From contig CBDFNJ010000001.1 in assembly GCA_965250115.1 (NCBI GenBank), forward strand, positions 1,450,175 through 1,514,174: 64,000 nt of DNA, written 5' to 3'. Position numbers and translations under genes: made by a program. Under the pieces are notes generated by a model. That model saw only the letters and a program-made list of their open reading frames with translations. It did no database searches and was not told where the DNA came from. Each line of letters begins with the position of its first letter. The first letter of the stretch is position 1. This stretch comes from Candidatus Marinacidobacterales bacterium (lineage in GTDB: Bacteria; Acidobacteriota; Vicinamibacteria; Marinacidobacterales; SMYC01). Below, piece by piece: positions 12,129 through 57,558 of this stretch.

Positions 12129-12152
12129 AGCGAAGGGATGCTTCTTTTTTCT

Positions 12153-12812: not shown

Positions 12813-14163
12813 ACAAAAGTTATCGATCCCGCACTCTCGACCTCGGAAAGATAGCGCATGGGCGATACGAGGAGCTCGCTCTGGCGAGTGGGTGAGAGCA
12901 CGGTTGCGTTCTCCGGGAGCGCTCCCAGAGCGCCGCTCGCGAAGTCCCTCGCGCTCTGCAGGTCTCTGCGATCCGGATTGAGCTGAAACGCCAAGGGATC
13001 CAGGGGGAGCTCGACGGGAGCGTCGGAGGAGAGCTTCCGCGCGTCGCTCCATCCTCGCCTGACGCACCGCCATGGGCGCGAAGCGGTAGATGACCAGCGG
13101 CGAGGTCGAGAGCACGATCGCGATCGCGAAGCCTTGCCAGCTCCCGCTCGAAAGGAGCTTCCACCAGCCGAAGCCGACGGCTATCGACAATATGACCCAC
13201 ACCGGCAGATAGGCGGGAACGGGCCTTTCCAGATCCAGAGTGATCACGAGAAAGCCATAGAGGAGAAACATTGGAAACACGAGAAAGAACACGTACTTCT
13301 GGCGGCGATAGAGCTCCCACAGCCCGATCAACCCAATCACTGCGGTCCAGGGCGGAAAGTTCAAGAGAAGCATCGCTCCGAAACGGAGCAGGGACTCCTT
13401 CAACGGCTGATCCCAGACGAGCATCATGTGATCCCAGAAGAAGAGCCAGGTCTTTTGCTCCGCCGGAATTTGAAACCCTGTCCTGGTCCACCCCCATGCG
13501 GCGACGGCAAGCGCCAATGACGCACCGACCACGAATACGGCAAGACCTCGGAAGCGCACGGCCCCGGCGTTGCGAATCAACGGAGGTTGCACGACACGAA
13601 CGAAAATGAGAATGATCGGAATCAGAAAGGCGAGGAGCAAGTTGTTTGCGAGCGCGAGGCCCAGAATCCCCATTCCCAAATAGAGATTGAGCGCGCCGCC
13701 GAGGTTCGCGAAGCGGATCAGGAAATAGAGGACCGCCGCGAGGAGCAATGCGTCGAGCGGCTCGGGGCCCGGTGTGACCGCTCGCATCCAAAACGTGTGC
13801 GAGACACCCAGCGAGGATCCCCACCCGTCGGGAAATGAACTGGGGCGCCATCTGGAGAAGGATTTTCAAGAGCAGATAGACGAACAGGCAAGCGCCCGCG
13901 GCGAAGGCCGCCGAAGCCCAGTTCGCGCGCCGAGCCAGCTCGCCCCAGGGAAGAAACAAAAACGGCTGAGAGAGAAAGACGAACAGCGGTCGATCCCAGG
14001 GTCCTTCACCGAACTCCGTTTGTGCGACGCGTCTCTGGTATTCCGCGCCCTCCATCCAACCAACGTCGGACGGCCCGGTAATAAAGTAGAAACCGAAAGC
14101 ACCGACGAAGACCGCGACCGCGACTCCGATGTTCAGCGCGTCCCTTGCAAAGCGACCTTTCAA
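12780..14163 (-). pseudogene. large polytopic membrane protein (DUF2723/PMT-like glycosyltransferase fold), frameshifted and 3'-truncated by the IS
   Basis: The N-terminal 125 aa (14163 to ~13800) are in one frame and the continuation (13787 to 12780) is in another. The last 11 codons (CGSTRIRVGKS) are encoded by the IS inverted repeat, so the original C-terminus is lost. Confidence 0.45.
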
Positions 14164-17198: not shown

Positions 17199-19136
17199 TT
17201 GACCCGGGCTCCGAGACTCGCTAGCATGTTTGTCGCTCCCCCCCGACACAGAGAAAACGGAAGACCGAGAAGACCGAAAGGTTTGTCGGGCGAGATGCGT
17301 TCTGTTTTCGTGTGGACGAAGGAGCCTGGGTGGCTTTCGCGTGACGCCTATCCGGAGGTTCATCAGCGTTTCGAGATCGAGCAGATCCACGAGGACTCGA
17401 CACTTCCGTCGCGTGCCGGGGTTCTTCTGGTGGACCAAGCGCTGGTCATCGAGCGACGCGCGGACATCGAAGCCTTCGCACGCGACCCGGGAAAAGTGAG
17501 GCGACCCGTCATCGCCGTGGCGCCTGCACCGGATTCCAGTGACGAGCTCGAGATCGTTTTCGAGGTCGTCGAGCGGCCGCCCCGGCCAAACGATCTTCTG
17601 CGCAAGCTCAACAACGCGACCTACTATCTGGACAACCAGCTTCGCCTCGAGGAGTCGCAAAGAGCGGCCGAGCAAAAGGCCCAGGAGCTCGTCGATCTGC
17701 AGGTTATCGGCATCGCTCTTTCGGCCGAGCACGACCACGAACGGCTTCTGAATCTAATCCTCAGCAAGGCTCGTGAGATCACGAACGCGGACGCGGGAAG
17801 CCTGTTTCTCGTTGCCAAGTTGGATATGCCGATCGAGCTGCCCGACGGTACCTTGCGGCGCGTCGGAGGACGATGGCTGCGCTTTCGTCTGTCGCAAAAC
17901 GACTCTCTCGAGCTCCGTTTCGAGGAGGACATCCTCGAGATCGGTTCGGATAGCATCGCGGGTTACGTCGCTCAAACCAGCGAAACGCTCAACCTCGAGG
18001 ACGCCTATGCGCCGCCGGCGGACAAGCCTTTCGTGATCAACCGAAGCTTCGATCAAGCCACGGGCTACCGAACCCGCTCGATCCTCGTGGTTCCGATGCA
18101 GAATCACGAGGGGGAGAACATCGGGGTTCTCCAGCTCATCAACAAGAAGAAGGCGCGCGACATGGTCCTCGACAGTGCGGAGAGCTTCGAGCAGAACGTG
18201 CTCAGCTTCGACGAGCACGACGAGCGCCTCGTGCGGTCACTGGCGAGCCAGGCGGCGGTCTCCGTCGAGAACAACAGTCTCTACCTTCAGCGAGAAAACC
18301 TCTTCGCCCGCTTCGTCGACGCGGCCGTCCAGGCCATCGAGAGTCGGGACCCCACGACGCAGGGTCACTCGAGGCGCGTCGCCGCCATGACGACAGAGTT
18401 GGCGCGCGTGACGAATCGAGTCGAGCGTGGACCCTATCGAGACTTCCGATTGAGCAGCGAGCAGGTTCGCGAGCTGAAGTACGCGGCACTGTTGCACGAT
18501 TTCGGCAAGGTCGGGGTCAAAGAGCGGGTTCTCGTCAAGGCAACCAAGCTCTACCATGGCCAGCTTTCCGTCGTGCGTCAGAGATTCAAGACCATTCGAC
18601 GAACGCTCGAAGTGCAGTATTTACGCCAGATGCTCGACCGCCTGCTTCGCAACGACGCCACGCCCGAGCAAATCGAGTAGATGAAAGAAGAGCTCGCCCG
18701 GAGCCTGAGCGTCGTCGATGAGGCTCGGGGTGCCGTCGAGGGGGCCAACAAGCCAACGGTGCGCCACCATTCCGACTTCGCGCGACTCGAGGAGCTCGGA
18801 GCCGAGACTTTCGAGGACGTCGATGGGAGCGAGAAGCCTTATCTCGAGCCCGAAGAGATCGTCTCCTTGACGGTTTCGAGAGGTACCTTGACTGATGGCG
18901 AAAGAAAGATGATCCAATCGCACGTCGACCATACCTATGATTTCCTTTCTACGATTCCGTGGACTCGGGACCTGCAGAACATCCCGGTTCTCGCGCAGAG
19001 CCACCACGAGAAGCTCGATGGAACCGGCTACTCGAATGGTCTCGGCGCCGAAGAGATACCGCCTCAAACGCGCATGATGACGATTTCCGATATCTACGAC
19101 GCGCTCACCGCTAGAGACCGACCCTACAAACCCCTC
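17199..19136 (+). pseudogene. GAF + HD-GYP domain c-di-GMP phosphodiesterase, interrupted by an in-frame TAG (18678-18680) and 3'-truncated by an IS3 insertion
   Basis: It has HD motifs (HSRRVAAMT..., LLHDFGK) and HHEKLDGTGYS (the HD-GYP signature with P to S). ORFs 17199-18680 and 18681-19205 share the same frame across a single TAG. Homology stops at 19136 (..DRPYKPL), where the IS left repeat begins. The start is uncertain (TTG 17199, ATG 17226 or 17293). Confidence 0.65.
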
Positions 19137-20842
19137 TGTGCCAACATCCTTGAGACAATCCGCTCCTTGAAATTAGTGTCGAGGGCGGAGGAGGATCATA
19201 GATGAGTACGTTGATTGAGAGAATGACGTCGGCGAGGTCGGAAGGAGCCCGTAGGGCGACTGGAGATCTCGCCGACCGTGGTGCTGCGGCGGGGGTCTGC
19301 GATCTCGAAGTGAGTGAGAAAGCGAAGCGCCGACGTTTCAGCGCTGAATACAAGCTGCGGATCGTTCGCGAGGCGGACGCCTGCAAGGGTGACGGTGATG
19401 TGGCGGCGCTTCTACGTCGCGAGGGACTGTACTCGTCGCATCTATCGAGTTGGCGTCGGCAACGGGACGAGATCGCCAAGGCGGGATTGACGTCGAGAAA
19501 GCGAGGTCGGAAGGCGAAGGCAGAGGCTCCACGGATCAAGGAGCTCGAGCGCGAGAACGCCCGACTCCAGCGCCGGCTGGCTCGGGTGGAAACGATGCTA
19601 GAGATCCAAAAAAAAGCCTCCGAGCTCCTGGGGATCCCCCTGAACCCGATCGACGACGACGAGAACGATTGATCGTGGCGGCCGAGGAGCTGGCGGGTCG
19701 GATTGGACAAACGGCGGAAGCTTGCGAGGCGCTGGGCGTGTCTCGTTCCACGTTGTATCGTCGACGCCGACCGGTGACGTCCAAGCCGAAGCGCCGTCCT
19801 CGGCCGCAGCGAGCCCTCGACACGACCGAGCGCGAGAGAGTCCTCAGTGCATTGCATTGCGAACGGTTCGTCGACAAGGCGCCGGCCCAGGTGTGGGCCA
19901 CGCTTCTGGACGAGGGAATCTACCACTGTTCGATCCGCACGATGTACCGGATTCTGTCGGAGCACGGAGAGGTGCGTGAGCGCCGGAACCAGCTGCGGCA
20001 TCCGAACTATCAGAAGCCGGAGCTCGTGGCGGAAGCGCCGAACCAGGTTTGGTCGTGGGACATAACGAAGCTGCGCGGCCCGGTCAAGTGGACCTACTTC
20101 TACCTCTACGTGATTCTCGACATCTTCTCCCGGTACGTGACCGGGTGGATGTTGGCTCGGCGAGAAAGCGCCGAGCTCGCCCGTCGTCTCATCAGCGAGA
20201 GCTGCCTCAAGCAGAACATCGAAGCCGACCAGCTCACCATCCACGCAGACCGCGGCAGCTCGATGCGAAGCAAGTCCGTCGCCTTGCTCCTGGCCGACCT
20301 CGGCATAACCAAGACGCACTCGCGGCCGTACGTCTCGAACGATAATCCCTACTCCGAGTCCCAGTTCAAGACGATGAAGTATTGCCCTGAATTCCCAAGC
20401 CGCTTTGGCTGTCTGGAAGACGGCCGCCTGTTCTGCGGCGGTTTCTTCGACTACTACAACAACGCGCACCGGCACTCGGGACTGGGGCTCATGACGCCGG
20501 CCGCCGTTCACTACGGTCGCGCCGACGAGCTCAACGCCGCCCGGCGCCAGGTCCTTCTCGAAGCTCATCGGGCTCACCCCGAGCGCTTCGTGCACGGAAC
20601 ACCTCAACCTCCGGTTTTGCCTCGTCAGGTCTGGATCAACCCGCCGCCCGAGAAAACGACGCCACAGGAGGCCCTAGGAGCCACTTTCTCGGGGCGCCCC
20701 GTACCTGAGCTACCCCCGGATTCAAGCTATCCGGACGCGATCGCGTCGGAACCCAATCGCGACCGCACCGCGCTCACGCCCCGTCCTTCACTGATCGAGG
20801 CTCACTAAATGCAGCCTGCGGGTGTCTCAAAGTTGCTGACAC
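19137..20842 (+). mobile_element. IS3-family insertion sequence (~1.7 kb)
   Basis: Imperfect terminal inverted repeats: TGTGCCAACATCCTTGAGACAATCCGC (19137-) against the reverse complement of 20815-20842 (TGTCAGCAACTTTGAGACACCCGCAGGC). orfA and orfB are joined by an A8G slippery run. No clean target-site duplication is seen. Confidence 0.75.
19202..20808 (+). CDS. IS3-family transposase OrfAB (orfA 19202-19672; orfB reached by programmed -1 frameshift at A_AAA_AAG 19608-19616; DDE/rve integrase core)
   Basis: OrfA has the HTH and leucine zipper (LERENARLQRRLARVETMLEIQKK). OrfB has the rve domain (WSWDITKL...ILDIFSRYVTGW...HADRGSSM...YNNAHRHSGLG). Confidence 0.8.
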
Positions 20843-20977
20843 GTTCCGAACCCGCCGTCAAGACCGAGACCGCTCTCGGCTACCTCGAGGAAGAGGCCAA
20901 GCTCGGCCAGCTCGACCTGGAACTGCTGGATCTTTTTATCGAGGCGAAGGTCTACGAGGAGGGCCTGACGAACTAGC
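20843..20977 (+). pseudogene. displaced 3' end of the same HD-GYP gene
   Basis: Immediately after the IS right end, the reading frame gives RSEPAVKTETALGYLEEEAKLGQLDLELLDLFIEAKVYEEGLTN*. This is the typical HD-GYP C-terminal tail, so the IS inserted precisely inside the gene. Confidence 0.55.
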
Positions 20978-38169: not shown

Positions 38170-40989
38170 ATGGGTGAGTCATTTCTCAGACGGGTCTTGT
38201 CTCCCGTCGTGACGTTCCGGGAGGGAGAAGCGGTTACCTGCGTCCTCATGTTCGTCTACTCCTTCCTCGTGATGACCGCTTACAACAACATCAAACCTTC
38301 CGCGGCCTCGAAGTTCATCGCCGATCTCGGCGCCGACAATGTGCCCTATGTGATGCTCATCGCGGGTCTCACGATGGGCTTCATCCTGAACTACTACAGC
38401 CGGGGCCTCACGAAAGTACCCAAGCTCTGGGTGCTTCCCGGAACGCAATTGCTCTTGATCGCCATGCTGGTCGGCTTCTGGTTTCTCTTCCAGACGGGCG
38501 AGGCCTGGCAGGCCTGGATCTCGGCGGCGTTTTTTTTCTTCGGCCGGCTTCTGCTGGGCATCTTTCTCATCAGCCAGTTTTGGACCTTGGCCAACGATAT
38601 CTACGACCCGCGGCAAGCGAAACGGGTCTTCGGATTCATCGGCGGAGGCGCGACCCTGGGAGGCATGACGGGATCGGGCCTCACGGCGCTTCTCGTCAAG
38701 CGGGTCGGCACCGAAAATCTCATCCTGTTCAGCGCGGCGGTGCTCGCCTTATGTTTCTTCCTCATCCTGGAAATTCAGAAAAGAACGAAGCGGGAGGGAG
38801 ATACTGAAGGCTCCTTCGAAGCCAAAGGCAGCACCGTCGGAGGCGGAGAAGCGCTCGCCATGCTGCGAAGCTCCCGGCACCTCAAGCTCATCGCTCTGAT
38901 CATCGGGTTCGGAGCCCTCGGCGCCGCGACGCTCGAGCAACAGCTCTACATGGCTTCCGAGGGCGTCCTCGAGGGACAGGACAGCATCACGAGCTTCCTG
39001 GCCGGCATCACGTTCTACATTTCCCTCATCGGCTTCGTGATTCAGGTTTACTTCACTTCCCGCATCTACAGTCTGCTCGGTATCGGGTTCGCACTTGCCG
39101 TACTCCCGGTGACCCTCGGCGCTACGGCGGTGATGATTCTCACTTACCGCGTGCTCTGGGCGTCCAGCGCGGCTCGAGTAGCGGACAGCGCGCTTCGCTA
39201 CAGCCTCGACAAGACCACGCGCGAAACGCTCTTCCTGCCTTTGCCGACGGAGCTGAAGCTGAAAGCAAAAGGCTTCGTCGACGTCGTCGCGGATCGCTTC
39301 ATTGGCAAGGGCATCGGCTCGGCCATCCTGCTGGTGGCCCTCAAGGTCTTCGACGTCTCCTGGTACCACTTGAGCTTGCTCAGCCTCGTATATTGTGTGC
39401 TGTGGCTCGCTCTGACGCGTCTCGCGAAGAAGGAGTACATGGCCGGGTTCCGGCGCAGCATCGAGACCCTCTCGCTCGAACCGGAGAGGCTCTCACCGGC
39501 GGCGGGCGACGCGGCCACTGTCGAGACGCTCGTCGAGGAGTTGGGGAGCTCGGACGAACGACGGGTTCTGCGCTCGATCGAGCTCCTCGAAGCCCTGGAG
39601 AAGCGAAATCTGATAACGCCTCTGCTTCTGCACCACGCTTCGGCCTCGGTGCGTGCGCGAGCGCTGAGAGCCATCCAGGCAGGCCGGCCCGAGATCGTCT
39701 CTCGGTGGCTCCCGGCCGTGGAGCTCGCGCTAAAGGACGAGGACGGCGACGTTCGCGCCGCGGCAGTGGAGGTCATCGCATCGGCTCGTGCCAGTGGCGT
39801 CCTGGACCTGATGCGAGGCTACCTGCACGACCGCGACCACCGCATCGTGGCAACCGCCGCGATTGCGCTAGCGGAGAGCGACGATGAAGCCGATCGAGTC
39901 GCCGCCTACGACACGCTTGAGCGACTGGCCTCGGATACACGAGGCGCTGCTGCAGCGGCACGCCGTGAAGCGGCGCGCTCCATCGTCCGCACGTCCGACC
40001 CGCGCTTCCGCCACCTCCTCATGCCTCTGATGCAGGACGCGGACCTGAGTGTGGCACGCGAGGCCATTCGAAGCGCTCGTCAGTTGGGCGATGACGATGC
40101 CCTCTTCGTGCCCGCGCTCGTTTCCCTGCTGAGACACCGCAGGCTCAAGAACACTGCCCGGGAAGCCCTCGTCAGCTACGGCGAGACCATCATTCCGACG
40201 CTTACCTACTTCCTCGCGGACGACAACGAGGAACCCTGGGTACGTCGACACATTCCCGAAGTGCTCGCCTTGATTCCAGATCGAGCCTCGGTCGAAGCGC
40301 TTCTCGTCTGCCTGGAGAGCGGCGATGGGTTGCTTCGCTACAAGGCGGTTCAGGCGCTCGAACGAATTCGGCGCATGGACCCGGACCGCGAAATCGACCC
40401 GGAACCGGTCCAGCGACAGCTCTTGAAGGAGGTCGCACGCTACTACCGCTACCTCGGCGCGGGCTATGACCTTTTTGACAAAGGCGGGCTCGCGCGCGAC
40501 TCGCTCGCCGGCCAGGCTTTGCGTGAGAAACTCGAGCGCGGGATGGACCGCATCTGCAGGCTCCTTGGTCTCATCCACTCGTTCCAGGACATCCGTGCGT
40601 CCCGATGGGCAATCGAAAGAGGGGACCCTCGCTCCCGAGCAAGCGCTGTCGAGTTTCTCGACAACACGCTTTCGGGGCAGTTCCGCAAGCTTTTTCTTCC
40701 CCTGGTGGACGACGTACCGCAAGGGGAACGGATTCGGAAGGGTAACGTGTTCCTCAAGACGCGTGTTCGCAGCATCGAGGATACGCTTGCGCGGCTCATC
40801 TACGACGACGACGTCGTTGTGGCCGCCACCGCGATCGACGTGATACGAGAGCAAAAGCTATGGTCGCTCGCGCCGGACCTCGAACAGGTGCTTCAGTTTC
40901 GCGATGCGAAGGACTTCGCGGTCTTCGAGTCCGCCTCCTTCGCGCTCGCGGCCTATCGATTGAGAATGGACGAGCCCCGTGCGATTTGA
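38170..40989 (+). CDS. ATP/ADP-translocase-like (NTT/TLC family) 12-TM transporter fused to C-terminal HEAT/PBS-lyase-type repeats
   Basis: The first ~430 aa are polytopic with NTT-like motifs (FWTLANDIYDPRQAKRVFGFIGGGATLGG). The C-terminal ~500 aa are alpha-helical repeats with recurring E/DxxVRxxAxxAL signatures. Confidence 0.65.
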   Translation: MGESFLRRVLSPVVTFREGEAVTCVLMFVYSFLVMTAYNNIKPSAASKFIADLGADNVPYVMLIAGLTMGFILNYYSRGLTKVPKLWVLPGTQLLLIAMLVGFWFLFQTGEAWQAWISAAFFFFGRLLLGIFLISQFWTLANDIYDPRQAKRVFGFIGGGATLGGMTGSGLTALLVKRVGTENLILFSAAVLALCFFLILEIQKRTKREGDTEGSFEAKGSTVGGGEALAMLRSSRHLKLIALIIGFGALGAATLEQQLYMASEGVLEGQDSITSFLAGITFYISLIGFVIQVYFTSRIYSLLGIGFALAVLPVTLGATAVMILTYRVLWASSAARVADSALRYSLDKTTRETLFLPLPTELKLKAKGFVDVVADRFIGKGIGSAILLVALKVFDVSWYHLSLLSLVYCVLWLALTRLAKKEYMAGFRRSIETLSLEPERLSPAAGDAATVETLVEELGSSDERRVLRSIELLEALEKRNLITPLLLHHASASVRARALRAIQAGRPEIVSRWLPAVELALKDEDGDVRAAAVEVIASARASGVLDLMRGYLHDRDHRIVATAAIALAESDDEADRVAAYDTLERLASDTRGAAAAARREAARSIVRTSDPRFRHLLMPLMQDADLSVAREAIRSARQLGDDDALFVPALVSLLRHRRLKNTAREALVSYGETIIPTLTYFLADDNEEPWVRRHIPEVLALIPDRASVEALLVCLESGDGLLRYKAVQALERIRRMDPDREIDPEPVQRQLLKEVARYYRYLGAGYDLFDKGGLARDSLAGQALREKLERGMDRICRLLGLIHSFQDIRASRWAIERGDPRSRASAVEFLDNTLSGQFRKLFLPLVDDVPQGERIRKGNVFLKTRVRSIEDTLARLIYDDDVVVAATAIDVIREQKLWSLAPDLEQVLQFRDAKDFAVFESASFALAAYRLRMDEPRAI

Positions 40990-43584: not shown

Positions 43585-43616
43585 CCGGCACCCGCCCACT
43601 TCGATCGCCTCTAAGC

Positions 43617-44703
43617 TGCCTTGGTGCACAACTCCGATAGAGGCCGATAGCTCGCTTGGCCCCGACTCCCATCATCCGATCATCTCGCTATCAGGCATCC
43701 CGAGGGCCGTCATCGTGTTGAGAATCTTGCACCCGATCCTTGCCTCGACTCTCTGTGCCGCCAACCCTCTCGCTCGCATCGCTGAGCCCACGATAGCCTT
43801 GTAGCGATGGAACGTTGTCTCGACTTTGCTCCGTTTGCTGTAGCCCGATTCTGTGTGCCACTTTCGTTTGCCGAGCCGAGCTTGTGCTGCAATGTTGCGA
43901 TTGCGCTGTCGGCTGCTCGCCGGCCCCGATGCGAGCTGGGCGCCCTTGCGCGGCGGTATCAGCACCCTCGGCGAGCGATGAGCGCTGTGATTCTCGATCG
44001 CCTCATAGACGCCGCTGGCGTCGTATGCGGTGTCAGCTCTGGCCGATGAGATGGGACTGTCGATCTGTCCGACAAGCGATGCAACCCGCGATGAATCGCG
44101 GGCTCTTTTGCTCGTCAGCTCGCCGGCGACGACTTCGCCAGTCTGCTCGTCGACACACAGATGGAGCTTGCGATAGTCCCTGCTCTTTGGTGCTCTGCGC
44201 AGCTGGCCGGCGTGGACAGCGAGACCGCTGCTGTCGATCAAGATGTGCAACGGCGTCTTCTGCTTGTCTTGGTAGAAGGGGACCTTACCCAGCTTCGCCT
44301 TGCGCCTCGAAATCGTGGTGTGATCGGGCACATCATTGTCTAGCTTCATCAGAGCGAACAACGATCGCAGCAATCCCTCGCTCTGCCTAGATGACAGATG
44401 AAACACCCTGCCCAGGGTGACAGCCGTCTCGATGGCGTGGTTCGAGTACTTGCGTTGACGGCCCGGTTTCCTCCTCCTCGGCCGGGGCGCGTCCCAGTTC
44501 ACAAGCTTGCCGGCGGTGAGCGAGATCCAGACGGTCAGGCTCCCACGGTTGCGTAGACCCGCCTCATATTCACGCCAACTCCTCACGCGATAGGCCTTCT
44601 TCACATACTTCCGCTGAGTGCGTTTGAAAATGCTCATGGGGAACCTCGAATCCGTGAGTACAGGACAATTGTGGACCGAGATCGCGAGTTGTGCACCAAG
44701 GCA
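43617..44703 (-). mobile_element. IS5-family insertion sequence (~1.09 kb)
   Basis: An 18-bp perfect inverted repeat: TGCCTTGGTGCACAACTC at 43617-43634 and its complement at 44686-44703. It contains a DDE_Tnp_1 transposase. Confidence 0.65.
43672..44637 (-). CDS. IS5-family DDE transposase
   Basis: It begins MSIFKRTQRKYVKKAYRVRSWREYEAGLRNRGSLTVW. The DDE region has LHILIDSSGL... and the C-terminal HTESGYSKRSKVETTFHRYK is typical. Confidence 0.75.
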   Translation of the reverse strand: MSIFKRTQRKYVKKAYRVRSWREYEAGLRNRGSLTVWISLTAGKLVNWDAPRPRRRKPGRQRKYSNHAIETAVTLGRVFHLSSRQSEGLLRSLFALMKLDNDVPDHTTISRRKAKLGKVPFYQDKQKTPLHILIDSSGLAVHAGQLRRAPKSRDYRKLHLCVDEQTGEVVAGELTSKRARDSSRVASLVGQIDSPISSARADTAYDASGVYEAIENHSAHRSPRVLIPPRKGAQLASGPASSRQRNRNIAAQARLGKRKWHTESGYSKRSKVETTFHRYKAIVGSAMRARGLAAQRVEARIGCKILNTMTALGMPDSEMIG

Positions 44704-45218
44704 GTTCTCCAGCAGCAGGTGGCCGAGCTCGACCGCGGCCAACGCTCGGTGACACGGACCGCGCCCCCGACTAATGACCCGACCCACCAGATATTGGCCG
44801 CTTGAACGAGCTGGGCTCGAGACGGTGTTCGCAGAATTACGGGAGCGCGTCGCCAGCGCCCACCGAGGAGGAGCTTGGCCTCTACGAAGGTCTCCCTCTT
44901 TGTTGCTGCCCCAATCGTCTCCAAACCGTCTCCAAAACTGGGGAGGACTCCAGAGGACTCGGGGAGATAGCCCGCCGAAAAAAAAGCCTCAACGGAGTTT
45001 CGATTGCCGCTACTCTGTCAACGCCCCCGTCTTCGCGAGGGCTCTTTAAAGGAGCATGTCCTGCGTTCGACGCGGAGGCTATTTGGACTGATGTCGGCGA
45101 TGCTGGGCCGAGCGTTCTCGTTTAATGGAGTCTCATTAAGTAATGTTGCGGCGTTCCCCGGGTGTTCCCCCAGCGGCAAAACAGACTTCGGCGAGTACCA
45201 GTAAGTGCCTGATTCGAT

Positions 45219-48896: not shown

Positions 48897-48993
48897 CGCG
48901 GGATTCTACCGTCGGTGTAGGGTGCAGATGCATTATTCAGCACCCTGCTCGATTTTTTTGAAACATTTTCCCCTCCCGCTGGTAAGAGGGGGC

Positions 48994-49605
48994 ATGAGAG
49001 GCTTGGTCGTCATGGAATCAGACGGAGGGCACGCGGAGATGCCCGCTTCGCGGCAGGATGCCGGCCCTCTTCTCGTGGCACACCGCCAAGGCAACGACAC
49101 CGCCTTCGCGAAGCTCGTCGAGCACTACCGCCGGCCCGTTTTCGGCTACCTCGTCCATACCGGCGTTCCCGAATCGGATCGAGACGATCTCTTCCAGGAC
49201 GTTTTCGTGAAGATCCACCGCCAGTCGCACCGATACGACCCCGCGCTGCCTCTCCATCCGTGGCTGTTCACGGTCCTCGCCAATACCGTAAGGAGCTATT
49301 TTCGGAAACAGAAGCTGCGCCGAGTTTTCTTCACGCCGCTCTCGAGCACGGAGCACAAAGACCCGGATCCCGACAGCGAGGCGAAAGCCACCGCAAACGA
49401 GATGGTTGTCTGGCTCGAGAGAACGATTCCAGAACTGCCCGCGAAGGAACGTTAGGTCTTGCTACTCGCGAGGCTCGAGGGCATGAGCCTGAAAGACATC
49501 GCTTCCGTGCTCGCAATCCCGATCGGTACGGTGAAGACCCGACTACGGCGAGCGCGGCTCCAGCTCGTAGAACGCTATGAACGCCAGAGAGTGAGTGCAT
49601 CATGA
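48994..49605 (+). pseudogene. ECF (group IV) sigma-70 factor with in-frame TAG at 49453-49455 between region 2 and region 4
   Basis: Region 2 is present (DLFQDVFVKIHR...), and after the TAG, in the same frame, region 4 follows (LLARLEGMSLKDIASVLAIPIGTVKTRLRRARLQL). Confidence 0.6.
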
Positions 49606-50291
49606 TGGATTTGTGCAAGTCATTGCGTGAAGAGCTAGCTCTCGAAGAAGAGCGCATGCTCACGAACGTGCAACAGGAACATCTCGAGAAGTGCACGGAC
49701 TGCCAGCGCTTTCTCGCTTCGCTTCACGCGATCGATCGCGGACTCGAAAGCTTGCCCGAGCACGACGCATCCGACTTCCAGGTTCGATCCGTTCTACGGC
49801 GCCTCCGCGCACCGAGGATTTCCCGGTTTCGCATTTTCGTCCCCGCCGCCGCGGCGGCGTTCCTCGCCGTCTTCGTTTTCCTCTGGATGCCACTTTACCG
49901 CGGCCAGAAGAGCTTCGATCGAGAGGCCGAGGTCGCGGATCGGCGGATCTCTCGTTTTCAGGGCGAGCTGGTCTCGACCGAGGAAAGTAGGCAAGAAGAA
50001 CCGGGGACAAACTTAGCGACTTGGACACCTTCAGTTATGTCTCGCGTCGACCGTCTTCGGCCTCTCCGCCGCCACCGGCCCAGGGTTTTGCGGATGGTTC
50101 CGGCCGCACGAACGGTGGTATCGCTGGAGTCGTCGGAGGCGACGTCGGAGGCGAACGAGGTCAGTCGCTCGACAACAAGGACGATGTGGTGGCTCGGGGC
50201 AAGAAAGGCGAGGGGAGGTTCGTGGAGAACGAGGGTGAAGAGAAGAACTTGCCCGCTGCGGCTGGACTTGCTGATGAAGCGCCCGAGATAG
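49602..50291 (+). CDS. anti-sigma factor N-terminal part (zinc-finger HLEKCTDCQ, single TM); C-terminal ~90 aa of this ORF probably out of frame
   Basis: ATG 49602 overlaps the sigma stop. ZAS-like HxxxCxxC is present, then a TM helix (FRIFVPAAAAAFLAVFVFLWMPLY). After ~49990 the translation turns Arg-rich, while the -1 frame becomes Pro/Gly-rich like a TonB linker. Confidence 0.5.
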   Translation: MMDLCKSLREELALEEERMLTNVQQEHLEKCTDCQRFLASLHAIDRGLESLPEHDASDFQVRSVLRRLRAPRISRFRIFVPAAAAAFLAVFVFLWMPLYRGQKSFDREAEVADRRISRFQGELVSTEESRQEEPGTNLATWTPSVMSRVDRLRPLRRHRPRVLRMVPAARTVVSLESSEATSEANEVSRSTTRTMWWLGARKARGGSWRTRVKRRTCPLRLDLLMKRPR

Positions 50292-51040
50292 CTGCAGCGG
50301 AGCGCAGCCTGTCGTCGAGCCGCCATTACATGCGCGCACGGTCCAGACCTAGCAAGCGCGTCGATCAATTGGCCGCCTATCCGGAGAAAGCGAAAGCGTC
50401 CCGGGTGGAAGGCACCGTCGTTCTCGAGCTCACGGTGGACGAAGAGGGCAATGTCACCGCGGTCAAAGTACTTCGCTCCGTGCCCGGTCTCGACGAAGCG
50501 GCCGTCGAAGCGGCGAAAGGATGGAAGTACGAGCCAAGCGACTCCGATAGCTCTCGAACGTTCCGCGAGCCCGTCACCTTCGAGCTGGAGAAGACGCCTG
50601 AGCCGAAGGATGAACGCTCGCTAGAGAACCTCAGTTTTCAAGAGGCCCGCGGCTACTGGCGAAACACCTACGTTCCAGGCGATCCCATGATTCGCTTGCT
50701 CGAGGCGCTCGAGAGGACGCGCGAGCTCGGCGATCGATTCCGGCTCGTCGTGGCTGGTCGAGGTGCGGCGGAGCTACTCGGGCCGGAAGCATTCCGACGC
50801 GGCCCTCTCAGTGTCGCGCTCGACGATCTCCTCGCGAAGGAGGAGAACTCGGGTCTTCCTCTTCAGCAGGCCGTCGCTCTTGCCATGGAACGCGTGCACG
50901 CCGGCGACGACCCGACGATGCCCCTCGGGACCAGCCTCTTGCTGCTGGTGACGTCGCGGTCGCTCTCGGACGACGTCGAGCCCGTCGCCGCGCTAGCCCA
51001 TCGGAGCGCGGCGAGGACGAGGACGGAATCCAGATCGTGA
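50021..51040 (+). CDS. periplasmic TonB C-terminal domain + VWA-like domain segment (probably the continuation of the anti-sigma gene via frameshift)
   Basis: It has SPPPPA and a Gly-rich linker, then TonB_C (AAYPEKAKASRVEGTVVLELTVDEEGNVTAVKVLRSVPGLDEAAVEAAKGWKYEP), then a VWA-like pattern (GDRFRLVVAG...LLLLVTSRSLSDD). There is no own TM or signal. Confidence 0.5.
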   Translation: MDTFSYVSRRPSSASPPPPAQGFADGSGRTNGGIAGVVGGDVGGERGQSLDNKDDVVARGKKGEGRFVENEGEEKNLPAAAGLADEAPEIAAAERSLSSSRHYMRARSRPSKRVDQLAAYPEKAKASRVEGTVVLELTVDEEGNVTAVKVLRSVPGLDEAAVEAAKGWKYEPSDSDSSRTFREPVTFELEKTPEPKDERSLENLSFQEARGYWRNTYVPGDPMIRLLEALERTRELGDRFRLVVAGRGAAELLGPEAFRRGPLSVALDDLLAKEENSGLPLQQAVALAMERVHAGDDPTMPLGTSLLLLVTSRSLSDDVEPVAALAHRSAARTRTESRS

Positions 51041-51507
51041 TTCCGAGCTTCTACGCAGGCGATGCCCATACGTTCTTGCTCGATGTGGTCGTTCCCGGAC
51101 CCGGAGCCGTTGCCGAGGTCACCGCGCGATACAAGGATCTCGGCGAACTCGAGAACACCGTCGGTCGGGCGAGCCTCTCTCTTGCGGACTCCCGCAAGGC
51201 TCCTGGTCCGCTCGAGACGAGCGTCGTGGAAGATTACTTTTCGTTCAAGGTCTCGAGGGCGCTGGCCAAAGCTGCCGGCGCGCTTGAAAACGGGCAGTGG
51301 GCGGCGGCGCTGAGCGAGCTCCGCTCGGTGCGTGACGCCTTGCAGGCGGCGCGGTCCGAAATGCCCCGGCTCTCGAGCGACATCGCCATGCTCGACGAGT
51401 ACCTTTCCTACCTGTCTTCACCCAACCCGCGTCTCCACGCGTACCTCTTGGACTCTTTGCGCTTTGCTTCCGCTCTCAAGCGTCTCCCTCCGCCGGCGCT
51501 TTCCTGA
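51037..51507 (+). CDS. C-terminal continuation of the VWA-like protein (reached by a further -1 shift near 50990-51010)
   Basis: The upstream in-frame translation ...ERGEDEDGIQIVIPSFYAGDAHTFLLDVV continues the VWA fold (GIxIxxIGxG-like). There is no independent RBS or start. Confidence 0.3.
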   Translation: MIPSFYAGDAHTFLLDVVVPGPGAVAEVTARYKDLGELENTVGRASLSLADSRKAPGPLETSVVEDYFSFKVSRALAKAAGALENGQWAAALSELRSVRDALQAARSEMPRLSSDIAMLDEYLSYLSSPNPRLHAYLLDSLRFASALKRLPPPALS

Positions 51508-51527
51508 GCAACTTCGAGGAAACGACG

Positions 51528-54185
51528 ATGAAACAGAAACTTCTCAGCTTCGCTCTAGCGTTCTTGGCTTCGGCCGCGATCGCCCAGGACGACAAGCCCC
51601 GCCAGGTTCAAATCCCGCTCGAGCTCTACAATCAGCTCATCGAGCAGACTCGGACGCCGATCGAAACGACCCGACCCGCGCCCGTGAACTACGCGCTCGG
51701 CAATGCCCAGGTGACGGTCCGAGTCAGCTCGACGGATCCGCGGCCGAGCGCCGACGTCCACGTCACACTCTCGATTCAGATCTTCGAGGATCAGTGGTCT
51801 CTGGTTCCAATCCTCCCCGCTGGAACGCCGGTGACCGAGGCCTCGATACAGGGAACCCCCGTTCAACTCGTGACGACGCCCGCGGGACTCGCCTGGGCCA
51901 ACAACCAGAAGGGCGCCTATCAGATGACGCTCTCGTATCGCGTGGACGCAGCTTCGGCGGAAGGGGGCTATGTTCTCAGCCTTCCGCTGCCGCAGGCCGC
52001 TTCGATCAACCTCACGGCGAGCCTGCCGGGGCGGGGTCTCGACGTTGCCGTGATACCTGCCGCCGGCCTGCGCACCTCGTCTTCGGGGAATCAGACCCAG
52101 GTTCAGGCGACGATCCCAACGACGAGCGGGGTCCAACTCTCCTGGCGCACTCCGAGAAAGGGTGAGCCTGCCTTCAGTCGTGCGCACTACCGCGGCGAGC
52201 TCTCAGGAGAGGCCATTCGGTGGAGAGGCGAGCTCGTCGTCGAGCTCTTCGAGGACGAGACCGCAACCCTTCAGCTATTGCCCCGAGAGGTCACCCTCAC
52301 GAATCTGGAAGTCGATGGTAAACAAGCCACGATCTTCGTGGAAGGCAAGCGTTTCGCGACCTTGGTTCGGGGCCAGGGAATCCACCGCATTGCCGTTTCC
52401 TTCGAAACGCCCGTCGTTCGAAGCGACGGCCCTCCGCACGTCGCGCTTCAAATTCCAAAAGTACCCGTTTCCCGCATCGACTTGAAGCTTCCGGGAAGAA
52501 AAGAAGTTTCCGCAAGTCCCGCCTCGAGCGTTACGAGTCGAAGACGCGGCGGCGCGACGGAAACGACGGTGAACGTCCCTCTCACGCAGAGGGTGACGTT
52601 GTCGTGGTCGGAAGCGATTCCCGAAGTCGCCCGCGAGGAGCTTCGCGCCAACGCTTCCATCTTTCACGTGATCCACGCTGAAGAGGGCGTTCTCGTCGTG
52701 CGGGCCCGAGTCCAGTACGAAGTGCGGCGCGGTGGGACTCATCGCTTCACGCTCGAGCTCCCTCCCGAAGTTCAGGTCAACGACGTGAGCTCGGAGTCGG
52801 GCGCCATCGCAGACTGGCGCGTGACCGCCGAGGGAAGCCGCCGCATCCTTCAGATCTTTCTCAACCGTGAGCTCCAGGGCGAACTCGTCTTCGACGTCGA
52901 CTACGACCGTTCGCTCTCCGCCACCGAGGCCCAGGAGTTGCCGCTCTTCCGCGCCCCCGACGTCGGTAGGCAGCGCGGAATGATTGCGCTCTTGTCGAGC
53001 CGCGAGCTGACGCTCAACCCTTCGGACGACGCGGGGGCGACCCGGGTCGGCGAGAACCAGCTTCCTGGCTTCGTTCGCGACGGCATCGAAATGACTATCG
53101 CGCACACCTTCAAATATACCGACACACCTCCCTCGATGAGCGTAACCGCTTCCGTTCCCGAGCGCGTCGCGGGACGTTTCGACGCCCAAGTCGATACGCT
53201 CTTGTCCCTGGGCGAGGTGACCTTGACGGGAAGCGTTACTGCCGAGCTCCACGTGAAGTCCGGCGGTGTCGACACGCTGGAGCTCGTCCTTCCCGCAGGT
53301 GCGAGCCTTCTGAACCTGAACGCGCCCTCGCTCCGAACCCACCGAGTCAGTGACGACGAAAGCCCGGTGGTCACACTGGAATTCACCCAGGAGATGGAGG
53401 GCGACTTTCGCATCGAGCTGACCTACGAGCGGATCCTCGAAGAGGGTGAGTCCGTGGTCGCCGCCTCGACGCCCAGAGTTCTCGGAGCGGACGTGGAGCA
53501 GGGCCGGATTGCCGTCGAAGCATCGAGCGCGGCCGAAGTGGAACCGGCCCAGACCGCCGAGCTATCTCCGATCGATGTCTCCGAGCTGCCGCGCCAGCTC
53601 GTCCTCCGCACGACGAATCCGATTCTCCTCGCGTTCAAGTACGTGCGGGCCGAGCCCGCGCCTCGGCTCGCGCTTCAAGTGAGACGTCACCCCACGATGG
53701 ACGTTCAGGAGGCGGCGATCGATGTCGCCGAGTACCGCACGCTCTTCACGAGGGATGGGCTCTCGGTGACGTCGGCAAGCTTCACCGTTCGAAACGCCCG
53801 GAAGCAGTTTCTTCGAGTGCGCCTCCCGGAAAACTCCGAGCTCTGGTCCGTTTTCGTCGCGGGACGCGCGGAAAAACCCGCTCTCGTCGAGGAAGATGGC
53901 GCGCGCTTTCTTCTCACTCAGATCGTGAACCGAACCGAAGGATTCCCCGTCGAGGTCGTCTATGCCACGCGCGGAGGTACTATCGGGGGCCTCGGCACGG
54001 TTCGAGCCCGGCTTCCGCGCCCCGATATCCTCGTCACGAGCTCGCACTGGGATCTCTTTCTGCCCGAAGGCCTGGACTACCAACGGCCATCGAGCAACAT
54101 GGACGTCGTCGAATCAGGGCGCGCCGTATCGGAACAGGAGATGCGAAACGAGCTCTCCGCTATTTCCGAAACGCGAGCGGCCTAG
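51528..54185 (+). CDS. large secreted protein of unknown function (885 aa, signal peptide, beta-rich)
   Basis: The signal peptide is MKQKLLSFALAFLASAAIAQ. It is a long, non-repetitive, Thr/Val/Ser-rich beta-type sequence with no recognisable catalytic motifs. Confidence 0.5.
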   Translation: MKQKLLSFALAFLASAAIAQDDKPRQVQIPLELYNQLIEQTRTPIETTRPAPVNYALGNAQVTVRVSSTDPRPSADVHVTLSIQIFEDQWSLVPILPAGTPVTEASIQGTPVQLVTTPAGLAWANNQKGAYQMTLSYRVDAASAEGGYVLSLPLPQAASINLTASLPGRGLDVAVIPAAGLRTSSSGNQTQVQATIPTTSGVQLSWRTPRKGEPAFSRAHYRGELSGEAIRWRGELVVELFEDETATLQLLPREVTLTNLEVDGKQATIFVEGKRFATLVRGQGIHRIAVSFETPVVRSDGPPHVALQIPKVPVSRIDLKLPGRKEVSASPASSVTSRRRGGATETTVNVPLTQRVTLSWSEAIPEVAREELRANASIFHVIHAEEGVLVVRARVQYEVRRGGTHRFTLELPPEVQVNDVSSESGAIADWRVTAEGSRRILQIFLNRELQGELVFDVDYDRSLSATEAQELPLFRAPDVGRQRGMIALLSSRELTLNPSDDAGATRVGENQLPGFVRDGIEMTIAHTFKYTDTPPSMSVTASVPERVAGRFDAQVDTLLSLGEVTLTGSVTAELHVKSGGVDTLELVLPAGASLLNLNAPSLRTHRVSDDESPVVTLEFTQEMEGDFRIELTYERILEEGESVVAASTPRVLGADVEQGRIAVEASSAAEVEPAQTAELSPIDVSELPRQLVLRTTNPILLAFKYVRAEPAPRLALQVRRHPTMDVQEAAIDVAEYRTLFTRDGLSVTSASFTVRNARKQFLRVRLPENSELWSVFVAGRAEKPALVEEDGARFLLTQIVNRTEGFPVEVVYATRGGTIGGLGTVRARLPRPDILVTSSHWDLFLPEGLDYQRPSSNMDVVESGRAVSEQEMRNELSAISETRAA

Positions 54186-54205
54186 CCGAGCCGCTTCTGA
54201 TCCAC

Positions 54206-54583
54206 GTGCCAACGACGGGAATACGCTACCGCTTCGAGAAGCTCTACGCGAATCAAGCGGACGTCGAGGCTTACGTTGCGATCCCCTACGCGTCCTCTTC
54301 CGGAGTTTTCATGGGGCAGCTCGTCTGCATTCTGGGTGCGGGCCTCTTGTGGATGGCGGGATGGCTTTCGTGGACGCGGGATGAGAGATTCTCCAAACGC
54401 GCTCGAATTCTGCTCCCGCTGGCGAGGGCGGTGATCGTAGTGGTCGCGACGGGGGTCTATCACGTGAGCTTCGTGCCGTCGCTCTTACTGTCTATCGCCG
54501 GCGCCGCCTTCCTCGGCCGATCGCAGTTCAGACGGCTCGCCGGATCGCTTCGTCCGGAAAGACCGGTGGAACAAAACAGCTAG
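54206..54583 (+). CDS. small integral membrane protein (3 TM)
   Basis: A 125-aa hydrophobic ORF immediately downstream of the 885-aa gene. Confidence 0.4.
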   Translation: MPTTGIRYRFEKLYANQADVEAYVAIPYASSSGVFMGQLVCILGAGLLWMAGWLSWTRDERFSKRARILLPLARAVIVVVATGVYHVSFVPSLLLSIAGAAFLGRSQFRRLAGSLRPERPVEQNS

Positions 54584-56011: not shown

Positions 56012-56731
56012 GTGAAGACCATCGAAGCATTCGACCTCGCCCCTGGGCGTACGCTCGCTCGCAAGTACGAAATCGTCTCCAAGCTGGGTGGTGGCTGGGA
56101 GGGCGAGGTTTATCGAATTCGAGAGAAAAACACGGGTATCGAGCGTGCCGCGAAACTCTTCTATCCCGAGCGGAACGTTCGGAACAAGGCGGCGATGGCC
56201 TACGCCCGCAAGCTCCACTCGCTTCGAGACTGCCCCCTCGTCATCCACTACCACACGGAGGAGACGGTCCTGATAAAGCGCACTCCGATCACCGTGCTCG
56301 TCTCCGAGTACGTGGAGGGCGAGATCCTGACGGATTTTCTCGAGCGGCAGCGGGGCGGTCGGCTCCACCCTTTTCAGGCGCTTCATTTGCTCTACGCTCT
56401 CGCCAAGGGGATCTCGGATATCCACCGCCGCCGCGAGTACCACGGAGACCTTCACTCCGACAACATCATCGTGGAGCACTACGGGCTCGAGTTCGACCTC
56501 AAGATTCTCGATCTCATTCAATGGGCGGCACCCAAACGCGAAGGGTTGCACGACGATATTTGCGACGTCATTCGCATCTTCTACGACGCCCTCGGTGGCG
56601 TCCGCTTTTACGCCACGCAATCGAAGCGAATCAAAGGAATCATTCGCGGCAACAAGCGATCCCTGATCCTGAAGCGTTTCCCGACCGCCACGCACTTGAG
56701 GCTGCATTTGGAGTCTCTCGGATGGGACTGA
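56012..56731 (+). CDS. RIO/Bud32/Kdo-kinase-like small atypical protein kinase
   Basis: The Gly-loop LGGGWEGEVY, Lys AAKLF, catalytic YHGDLHSDNIIV, and metal-binding ILDLIQW match the RIO-type HGDLSEYN / IDxxQ pattern. GTG start. Confidence 0.55.
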   Translation: MKTIEAFDLAPGRTLARKYEIVSKLGGGWEGEVYRIREKNTGIERAAKLFYPERNVRNKAAMAYARKLHSLRDCPLVIHYHTEETVLIKRTPITVLVSEYVEGEILTDFLERQRGGRLHPFQALHLLYALAKGISDIHRRREYHGDLHSDNIIVEHYGLEFDLKILDLIQWAAPKREGLHDDICDVIRIFYDALGGVRFYATQSKRIKGIIRGNKRSLILKRFPTATHLRLHLESLGWD

Positions 56732-57558
56732 GCCATCGACTGCACCCCGACGAAGCTCGGCTCTTTTTCGAGCAGGATCGGCTCGAGGGCGAGTTCTTCA
56801 TCGTCGCCGGAGGCGAGGTTTCCGTCTACTCGAGCCGGAGCCCCGCCAAGGACACCGCGAACGAGGATGCAGCCGCCGTCATCGGCACCGGGAAGGAAGG
56901 CGCGATTCTGGTGGTGGCGGATGGTCTCGGGGGAATGCCGGCCGGCCAGCAAGCTTCTTCGGTCGCGGTCGAATGTATCGCCCAGGCAGTGCACCTTGCC
57001 ATGGTGGAAGGACACGACGCACGGTCGGGCATCTTGAATGGATTCGAAGCGGCGAACGAGGGGGTGCTCGCGCTCGGTGTCGGAGCGGGAACGACTTTGG
57101 CCGTCGTCGAGGTGAACGATCGGACCGCCCGTGCTTACCACGTTGGCGATTCCCTCGTCCTCGTGACGGGCCAGCGCGGAAAACTCAAGTTGCAGACCAT
57201 CTCACACTCGCCCGTGGGCTACGGCGTCGAGTCGGGACTTTTGGACGAGAAAGACGCGATGTACCACGAGGAGCGACACGTCATCAGCAACATGATTGGC
57301 AGCGCCGACATGCGTATCGACGTCGGTCTCCCCATCGAGCTCGCGCGGCGAGATACTTTGCTACTCGCTAGCGACGGGCTCTCCGATAACCTTCATACCG
57401 ACGAGATCGTCTCCTTGATGCGAAAGGGTCCACTCCGGAAGGTGACGCGGCAGCTCGCCTCCTCGACCCTGGCTCGAATGACGGACGCCGGCGACGATGA
57501 GCCCTCGAAACCCGACGATCTTACGTTTCTCCTTTTCCTGCTTCGATCGAAGGGATAG
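56722..57558 (+). CDS. PP2C-family Ser/Thr protein phosphatase
   Basis: It has the DGLGG, GTT, and LLASDGL motifs. The ATG overlaps the kinase stop. Confidence 0.75.
   Translation: MGLSHRLHPDEARLFFEQDRLEGEFFIVAGGEVSVYSSRSPAKDTANEDAAAVIGTGKEGAILVVADGLGGMPAGQQASSVAVECIAQAVHLAMVEGHDARSGILNGFEAANEGVLALGVGAGTTLAVVEVNDRTARAYHVGDSLVLVTGQRGKLKLQTISHSPVGYGVESGLLDEKDAMYHEERHVISNMIGSADMRIDVGLPIELARRDTLLLASDGLSDNLHTDEIVSLMRKGPLRKVTRQLASSTLARMTDAGDDEPSKPDDLTFLLFLLRSKG

Follow-up and report, generated by a model that had tools for sequence, protein, structure and literature searches.

Probable recent inactivation of a three-gene ECF sigma factor operon in an acidobacterium, and the anti-sigma/TonB_C/VWA family to which the operon belongs

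Can an anti-sigma factor be fused to a TonB_C domain, or does such a protein appear only when broken reading frames are joined? This question is raised by a locus in a 64,000-nucleotide (nt) stretch of a Candidatus Marinacidobacterales genome (contig CBDFNJ010000001.1; hereafter, the window), in which seven open reading frames (ORFs) lie in three frames on the plus strand between positions 48994 and 54583. The original prediction, made from the letters of the DNA, described a sigma factor of the extracytoplasmic function (ECF) type interrupted by an amber codon, an anti-sigma factor that seemed to continue across frame changes into TonB_C and von Willebrand factor A (VWA)-like domains, and two further genes. 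It offered decay of the locus as the alternative. Comparison with related genomes indicates that the fusion is genuine and that the operon in the window is very probably a recently inactivated copy of a conserved three-gene ECF sigma operon. Decay, which has reached all three genes, is thus compatible with the fusion and not an alternative to it.

The fusion was assessed against four reference assemblies aligned with the window: L009 (99.6-99.7% DNA identity over 14 kb), L001 (99.4%), and L002 and L003 (both ~95%). In L009, one uninterrupted ORF of 842 amino acids (aa) carries the whole fusion, and it aligns along the entire anti-sigma region of the window except at three lesions. Searching the window by tblastn with an intact homolog, P0004, returned four collinear pieces in three frames; the coding sequence runs in frame 0 from 49602 to about 50006, in frame 2 to 51010, and in frame 1 from 51011 to a stop at 51507. 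A set of 50 aligned homologs (~750-1014 aa) likewise holds the anti-sigma domain, a transmembrane (TM) segment, TonB_C, and the VWA module in a single chain. The L009 ORF and these homologs exclude the concern that the fusion was an artifact of frame-joining, and where relatives were checked for separate anti-sigma and TonB-like genes, a fused ORF was found instead. The homologs found with the frame-joined protein come mostly from Vicinamibacteria and other metagenome-assembled genomes (MAGs) of Acidobacteriota. Their source annotation reads just “TonB family protein”, and our literature searches on anti-sigma factors with TonB_C found no description of such an architecture.

The first gene of the operon encodes the sigma factor. 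Its two ORFs, 48781/48994-49455 and 49459-49605, are in the same frame, with just the TAG at 49453-49455 plus one codon between them, as first described, which leaves no uninterrupted frame over both sigma regions in the window. With the TAG patched before the Pfam scan, the 203-aa product matched Sigma70_r2 (E = 1.7e-12) and Sigma70_r4_2 (E = 5.8e-18), covering regions 2 and 4 only, and the intact L001 ortholog scored 90.1 bits against TIGR02937 sigma70-ECF (cut-off 42.9). Upstream lies an ECF-type promoter-like motif that matches once in the whole window (chance expectation 0.16). We followed this motif, and the gene content discussed below, across 80 species-level loci obtained by scanning species-representative genomes; gene content was scored with hidden Markov models built from alignments made in this analysis. 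Of 67 loci, 57 have the pattern TGAAAC(C)-N16/17-GTA(T/C) 5' of the sigma gene, and the best spaced motif pair occurred in 20 of 62 loci (maximum in shuffles, 5). This promoter motif supports autoregulation of the operon by its own sigma factor. The -10 element stops just short of the ATG at 48994, so that this start probably lies too far upstream; judging from the sequence, translation more likely begins at a later ATG, 49012 or 49039, and the L009 gene call begins at the equivalent of 49039. The promoter -10 and the candidate sigma starts span window positions 48982-49041.

The second gene starts on the stop codon of the first (ATGA overlap, 49602-49605). Its product begins MMDLC5…H27LEKC31TDC34, with the ligand spacing H27-x3-C31-x2-C34. 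Direct translation therefore bears out the earlier description of a zinc-binding anti-sigma (ZAS)-type start with an HxxxCxxC motif and one TM segment, although zf-HC2 stays below threshold. All four ligands are invariant among 21 family N-termini. A profile of the N-terminal region gave weak matches to solved anti-sigma structures in the PDB (DdvA, E = 0.12; RsiW, 0.18; RslA, 0.81). Pfam reported nothing above threshold for the N-terminal anti-sigma ORF of the window; zf-HC2 reached E = 0.13 in the homolog P0025, and DUF3379 scored 23-28 bits, below its cut-off of 33.2. The structural model of P0004 (mean predicted local distance difference test score, pLDDT, 77; predicted template modeling score 0.63) contains an N-terminal helical domain with helices at residues 3-14, 22-30, 32-49, and 58-69 (pLDDT 86-95 over residues 1-50), followed by a TM helix predicted at residues 84-98.

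Past the membrane, the P0004 model is disordered over residues 95-250 and then forms a TonB_C domain (257-332), an alpha/beta domain (345-640), a beta-sandwich (690-742), and a four-helix bundle (750-841). In the window, the second-frame stretch (from ~50006) is rich in Pro and Gly before it enters TonB_C, confirming that a Pro-rich part and a full TonB_C domain belong to a gene spread over three frames. The TonB_C signature, YP…EG…WKYEP, is canonical (Pfam, E = 1.4e-16 to 1.6e-19; TIGR01352 in the L009 ortholog, 64.2 bits, cut-off 27.1). The domain is internal, with ~500 residues following it. When residues 345-742 of P0004 were compared with the PDB by Foldseek, the matches included archaeal ArnB (8s05, E = 4e-17, target TM-score 0.57; also 5a8j), the Catenulispora VWA protein 4fx5 (E = 8.5e-16), ITIH1, and the trunk and beta-barrel of Sec23/24; E-values ran from 4e-17 to 1e-10, at 10-14% sequence identity. 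Pfam VWA aligned over profile positions 1-165 of 174 (E = 3e-4), scoring 21.5 bits, below the cut-off of 23.8. At the position of the metal ion-dependent adhesion site (MIDAS), the family consensus is VVLDLxxxx, that is, DxSxS without its two Ser. As modeled, the C-terminal module of the family is thus a divergent VWA domain without the MIDAS motif. Compared with ArnB-type proteins, it would be periplasmic and tethered to an anti-sigma domain, with the MIDAS degenerate. The VWA-like fold that had been proposed therefore stands for the family, while the window copy has most of its core deleted. Profile searches on the frame-corrected translations recovered Sigma70_r2/r4 and TonB_C; in the homologs of the family, zf-HC2 and VWA stayed under their gathering scores.

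The third gene, which we refer to as the partner, had been read as two: an 885-aa secreted protein and a separate 3-TM protein. This part of the original prediction was not upheld. The ORF with the signal peptide (51528-54185) and the 3-TM ORF are one gene of ~1020 codons split by a 7-nt deletion, since the single 1020-aa protein of L002 aligns to both, its residues 1-885 in one frame of the window and 878-1020 in another. A structural model of the partner P0121 (pLDDT 83) has its C-terminal helices at residues 927-953, 961-980, and 986-1011. Neither Pfam nor NCBIfam recognizes a domain above threshold in the partner family, which also lacks source annotation; its sole Pfam match, A2M_BRD at E = 0.004, was taken as generic beta-sandwich similarity. 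Identity is 45-65% among the full-length homologs aligned, and the family comprises 1,920 representative clusters at E ≤ 1e-30. Segments of the partner (profile positions ~390-875) also recur five to seven times in giant proteins of 1,400-2,600 aa (P0349, P0354, P0355, and P0360-P0386); because of this recurrence, the beta-sandwich unit appears to be a repeat module used elsewhere.

Read from its sequence, the operon in the window cannot function: the sigma factor is truncated before region 4, the anti-sigma factor is frameshifted after its TM segment and has lost its VWA core, and the partner has lost its membrane anchor (coordinates in the table below). The ORF that continues past the shortened G-run of the anti-sigma gene ends at 50291 and encodes 229 aa, comprising only the anti-sigma domain and the TM segment. 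This loss of one G is the only lesion that is plausibly a homopolymer sequencing error. The 294-nt deletion, which is absent from L001, L002, L003, and L009, costs the gene 98 codons, among them those for the first beta-strand and the MIDAS-position segment of the VWA fold. The 328-nt deletion, absent from L001, L002, and L009, takes away what is left of the VWA domain together with the beginning of the beta-sandwich. Together, the two deletions eliminate most of the VWA domain, including invariant alignment columns. The 7-nt deletion in the partner lies outside any homopolymer, and a protein cluster (P0122) is identical to the window product at 882 of 885 positions and has the same C-terminus.

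The distribution of these lesions among the relatives gives their relative ages. L009 also has the sigma TAG and the partner frameshift, which are hence older, whereas the three anti-sigma lesions are specific to the window and hence younger. Pairwise ratios of nonsynonymous to synonymous substitution rates (dN/dS) were lowest for the partner (0.10), followed by sigma (0.18) and the anti-sigma factor (0.28-0.38); flanking genes gave 0.11-0.24. These values indicate that purifying selection acted over most of the divergence and, accordingly, that the lesions are recent. About 10 kb flanking the operon aligns without indels to L001 and L009, and the neighboring genes, encoding an acyl-CoA dehydrogenase, TetR, SDR, an aminotransferase, a kinase, PP2C, and an NAD-binding dehydrogenase, are intact. 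Ten other ORFs of the window (493-939 aa) have full-length Pfam coverage, and no repeats of at least 150 nt that might explain mis-assembly were found in the window. A scan of JGI metagenomes for the sigma TAG/GAG site gave no matches and thus no further strains; among the loci from the species-representative genomes, none belonged to the species of the window, and the best-matching relatives with a name were ~65% identical MAGs of Acidobacteriota or “Ca. Marinacidobacterales”.

Table. Features of the operon in the window and state of the operon in four related assemblies.
Feature	Position	Strand	Basis or occurrence
Promoter-like motif of the ECF type (TGAAAC-N17-GTA) preceding the sigma gene, apparently intact	48959..48984	+	
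Pseudogene of the ECF sigma factor (regions 2 and 4)	48994..49605	+	Pfam on patched sequence
Nonsense codon TAG, ancestral GAG (Glu), between regions 2 and 4	49453..49455	+	GAG in L001, L002, L003; TAG also in L009
Anti-sigma/TonB_C/VWA-module pseudogene, ancestral product 842 aa	49602..51507	+	Aligned with intact L009 ORF
CHCC zinc-ligand set C5, H27, C31, C34 of the anti-sigma domain	49614..49703	+	Motif, alignment
Single TM segment IFVPAAAAAFLAVFVFLWMPLY, no His, ~residues 78-99	49833..49898	+	Translation read directly
G4 where relatives have G5, 1-nt loss, frameshift	50003..50006	+	Window only
TonB_C domain, sequence intact	50375..50587	+	Pfam 1.4e-16
Junction of 294-nt in-frame deletion between 10-nt direct repeats CTCGAGGCGC	50699..50708	+	Window only
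Junction (CGCG microhomology) of 328-nt frameshifting deletion, 51010/51011	51007..51010	+	Window only
Pseudogene of ~1020-aa partner, with a signal peptide, beta-sandwich repeats over ~850 aa, and three TM helices at the C-terminus	51528..54583	+	
7-nt deletion (ACACGCG) in the partner, premature stop 54183-54185	54160..54161	+	Shared by L009 and P0122
125-aa 3-TM ORF, out-of-frame C-terminal membrane anchor of the partner gene	54206..54583	+	Alignment and model
L009 operon: sigma TAG (as window); anti-sigma intact, 842 aa; partner 7-nt deletion (as window)			
L001 operon: sigma intact; anti-sigma GAG→TAG at codon 615 and 681-bp mobile-element insertion; partner 92-nt deletion			
L002 operon: sigma 139-nt deletion; anti-sigma 1-nt deletion near C-terminus; partner intact			
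L003 operon: sigma intact; anti-sigma homology ends near codon 610; partner lost with rest of operon			

Two features of the lesions seen in this species can be added. Both nonsense mutations of its operon, at window position 49453 and at codon 615 in L001 (~9843-9845), changed GAG to TAG, a G→T transversion. In addition, the window carries at 12147-12818 a non-autonomous mobile element of ~672 bp that has terminal inverted repeats of 30 nt (TTTTCTGGGTCTACGCGGATTCGTGTGGGT) and retains a weak ISL3 transposase remnant. A copy of this element, 96% identical, interrupts the anti-sigma gene of L001 (10260-10940). The position of this copy in a sister strain's anti-sigma gene indicates that the element moved recently in the species.

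The intact operon belongs to a module that extends well past this clade. Its 80 loci come from Acidobacteriota (Vicinamibacteria, “Ca. Marinacidobacterales”, and Thermoanaerobaculia), Myxococcota, Bradymonadia, Bdellovibrionales, and Alpha- and Gammaproteobacteria. Among the 60 loci with enough sequence, the sigma gene is located upstream in 54 and is followed by the anti-sigma domain and TM segment in 53; of 75 loci, 74 have the partner gene directly downstream. TonB_C was detected in 13 of the 80, being absent elsewhere or replaced, for example by CarboxypepD_reg. Indeed, in Pfam scans of nine non-acidobacterial or divergent members, the spacer held TonB_C and a weak PDZ match in one delta-proteobacterial MAG, CarboxypepD_reg in another, and nothing detectable in the remaining seven. 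Sequence comparison thus places the VWA module and the ~1000-aa partner at the conserved core of the module, with TonB_C as an optional spacer domain. Loci that illustrate this modularity of the spacer are L014 (7033-7587, with two tandem TonB_C domains), L066 (3220-6795), and L035 (6001-8940). The gene calls of the loci examined linked no TonB-dependent transporter, FecR-type domain, or ExbBD to the module, and FecR, STN, and TonB_dep_Rec domains were absent from the gene calls or Pfam scans of nine loci and the window operon. In some loci, the sigma, anti-sigma, or partner gene is split into two to nine pieces; these include L014, L016, L018 (partner in nine pieces), L026, L045, and ten others.

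Several points weigh against the view that the window holds a recently inactivated operon of this family. The lesions were read from assembled sequence, and a homopolymer error could account for the change from G5 to G4. A truncated 229-aa product with the anti-sigma domain and TM segment is possible, should the operon be transcribed. The number of fragmented loci (15 of the 80 species-level loci, many of them from long-read MAGs) implies that some apparent decay may be sequencing error. Finally, Pfam zf-HC2 and VWA miss their gathering scores, and it is the motif, the context, and the predicted fold that support the assignment of anti-sigma and VWA domains.

The most serious competing account is a variant of inactivation and does not exclude it: the operon may have been lost under selection, either because the module was costly or because its exposed partner was exploited by phages or predators. 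All five genomes of the clade are lesioned, with independent and different lesions in at least four lineages within 99.4-95% identity, and the dN/dS of the partner implies constraint until very recently. The same pattern is, however, expected from relaxed selection in a genome rich in insertion sequences (IS), in which IS3, DDE_Tnp_1, and copies resembling miniature inverted-repeat transposable elements differ between strains; moreover, once sigma or promoter activity was lost, downstream lesions would be neutral. Selected loss is thus unlikely, if by no means far-fetched. The window copy is a case of ordinary decay, and these data are compatible with a loss that was neutral as well as with one that was favored.

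A second account concerns the intact family. The original prediction likened the fusion to an inverted form of cell-surface signaling, in which the TonB_C domain of the anti-sigma factor would bind the TonB box of a ligand-loaded outer-membrane transporter as the signal. The canonical signature of the domain is consistent with this, the long disordered linker could span the periplasm, and a TolA/TonB-C-like domain occurs in VreA of the Pseudomonas aeruginosa PUMA3 cell-surface signaling system (PMC2729926). Against it, only 13 of the 80 loci have TonB_C, with another domain or none in most of the family, so that TonB_C cannot be the core sensor. The conserved module contains no gene for a TonB-dependent transporter; the near-invariably linked gene is that of the beta-sandwich partner. 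We therefore consider inverted signaling improbable and did not retain it.

That the genes are intact in the organism and merely appear broken through sequencing or assembly artifacts is less probable still, to the point of being very hard to sustain. The first anti-sigma lesion, a single-base loss in a G5 homopolymer, would fit such an artifact, as would the resemblance of the related assemblies to long-read metagenome assemblies and the 15 fragmented loci of the 80, often in long-read MAGs. The other lesions, however, are untypical of read errors: a G→T substitution, a 7-nt deletion outside homopolymers, and deletions of 294 and 328 nt at 10-nt and 4-nt microhomology. The TAG and the 7-nt deletion recur in the independent assembly L009, the latter also in P0122, and neither the indel-free flanks nor the other ten long ORFs show comparable damage.

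Programmed recoding or functionally split genes (read-through of the TAG, -1 ribosomal frameshifts, or separate subunits) can be discounted almost entirely: although each of the single-base frame changes is a -1 shift, the two halves of sigma share a frame, and the 229-aa ORF retains the full anti-sigma domain and TM segment, the relatives have the sense codon GAG and an unbroken frame at these sites, direct reading of CCGGGGAC reveals no X-XXY-YYZ slippery heptamer, TAG is the ordinary stop of 10 of the 29 other long ORFs in the window, and recoding could not bring back the conserved fold elements lost with the 294-nt and 328-nt deletions. Stop-codon reassignment was likewise rejected, TAG being a normal stop here, as was -1 programmed frameshifting, given the lack of a slippery heptamer and the in-frame relatives.

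With recent inactivation of a conserved operon retained as the most probable reading of the window, we propose how the intact form might work. The TGAAAC-N17-GTA promoter would drive a three-gene operon whose first gene encodes the ECF sigma factor. The second, translationally coupled, would encode a single-pass anti-sigma factor whose cytoplasmic CHCC domain would hold the sigma factor, by analogy with known anti-sigma factors. Its periplasmic part is modeled as a disordered Pro/Gly linker of ~150 aa and TonB_C, followed by a VWA domain that lacks the MIDAS, then a beta-sandwich and a helical bundle. The third gene would specify an inner-membrane protein of ~1020 aa, predicted to expose a string of beta-sandwiches to the periplasm and to be anchored by three C-terminal TM helices. 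The VWA module and this partner would form a periplasmic sensing unit. An envelope signal that alters their complex would inactivate the anti-sigma factor, most likely through regulated proteolysis as in other single-pass anti-sigma factors, and the released sigma would transcribe its own operon and other targets. In the acidobacterial subfamily, TonB_C would not be an energy transducer; its role would be that of an accessory docking domain, and the sensor may be tethered through it to a TonB-box-like strand or to outer layers of the envelope. In the window, loss of the sigma factor may have silenced the operon, after which the other genes would have drifted.

Coupling to ExbBD requires a His in the TM segment, as exemplified by H20 of E. 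coli TonB. The TM segment here lacks His, and such coupling is therefore unlikely. The protein shares with TonB an N-terminal anchor, a Pro-rich linker, and TonB_C, but it differs in its anti-sigma N-terminus, its His-less TM segment, its internal TonB_C domain, and the lack of adjacent exbBD. For these reasons, and because no exbBD or transporter gene is linked, we conclude that the protein is not a TonB and the system not of the FecIRA type. FecI/FecR/FecA and VreA/VreI/VreR do resemble the module in having an ECF sigma factor, a membrane anti-sigma factor, and a TonB-type domain in the pathway, which is TonB itself in Fec and a domain of VreA in PUMA3 (PMC2729926). They differ in that the module has neither a FecR-type domain nor a TonB-dependent transducer with a signaling domain, and in that its TonB_C is fused to the anti-sigma factor and dispensable across the family. 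The TonB-C-like domain of VreA, which is a separate protein, is the nearest precedent in ECF signaling (PMC2729926).

Closer relatives are found among single-pass, class I anti-sigma factors of the ZAS/CHCC type. RsiW, RslA, and DdvA of Myxococcus xanthus are alike in their helical anti-sigma domain, the Cys…His-x3-Cys-x2-Cys pattern, one TM segment, and coupling to an ECF sigma gene. The periplasmic domains of RsiW and RslA are small, and the family shows no significant sequence similarity to solved anti-sigma domains (E = 0.12-0.81). DdvA is described as a CHCC zinc three-helix bundle whose ligand pattern equals C5/H27/C31/C34 of the family (PMC11506125). It also has a large extracytoplasmic sensor, built from TPR-CHAT in DdvA and from TonB_C, VWA, beta-sandwich, and helical bundle here. 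Anti-sigma factors with VWA are already known in kind from ECF289, where VWA is fused to DUF3520 (PMC7826278). In addition to an ECF sigma factor and a VWA-bearing anti-sigma factor, our family has an obligatory ~1000-aa partner, TonB_C in a subset of members, and a VWA domain without DxSxS that is followed by a beta-sandwich and helical bundle (ArnB/Sec23-24-like); DUF3520 gave no match at E ≤ 1 in P0004, P0010, P0025, and P0058. We regard the family as a conserved and uncharacterized variant of the ECF sigma/anti-sigma theme.

The dead operon of the window matters little in itself. The module it represents, consisting of the promoter, the ECF sigma factor, the VWA-type anti-sigma factor, and the ~1000-aa partner, is a candidate for an uncharacterized envelope-sensing pathway in sediment and soil bacteria. 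We put forward, tentatively and as a possibility short of an even chance, an undescribed multi-phylum ECF module in which the anti-sigma factor (MIDAS-less VWA, beta-sandwich, and helical bundle) and the ~1000-aa beta-sandwich inner-membrane protein would act as an integrin-like periplasmic sensing pair. The swappable spacer, TonB_C in Acidobacteriota and CarboxypepD_reg, PDZ, or none elsewhere, would set the tethering, and the module would have undergone parallel loss in one acidobacterial species complex, where it is perhaps a liability. In addition, the five genomes, ranging from near-identical to 95% identical and bearing different lesions, form a nucleotide-resolved series of operon decay, with the regulator struck before the sensor, that may help calibrate pseudogene calling in MAGs and that warns against annotating fragments as separate genes.

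Other parts of the window yielded minor observations. An IS3-family element (HTH_Tnp_1 and rve; 19132-20848) and a DDE_Tnp_1 IS (43616-44704) have copies at other positions in L001 and L009, and this difference in position between strains indicates a strain-variable IS content in an IS-rich genome. Immediately downstream of the module, a Ser/Thr kinase and PP2C phosphatase pair is encoded in the window (56012-57558), in the more distantly related L006 (12703-14246), and also in L001 and L002; it is not found in L004 or L007, and its proximity to the module may be only local synteny. Lastly, the 939-aa ORF at 38170-40986 combines an MFS/TLC-like membrane domain (ATP/ADP transporter family) with C-terminal HEAT repeats.

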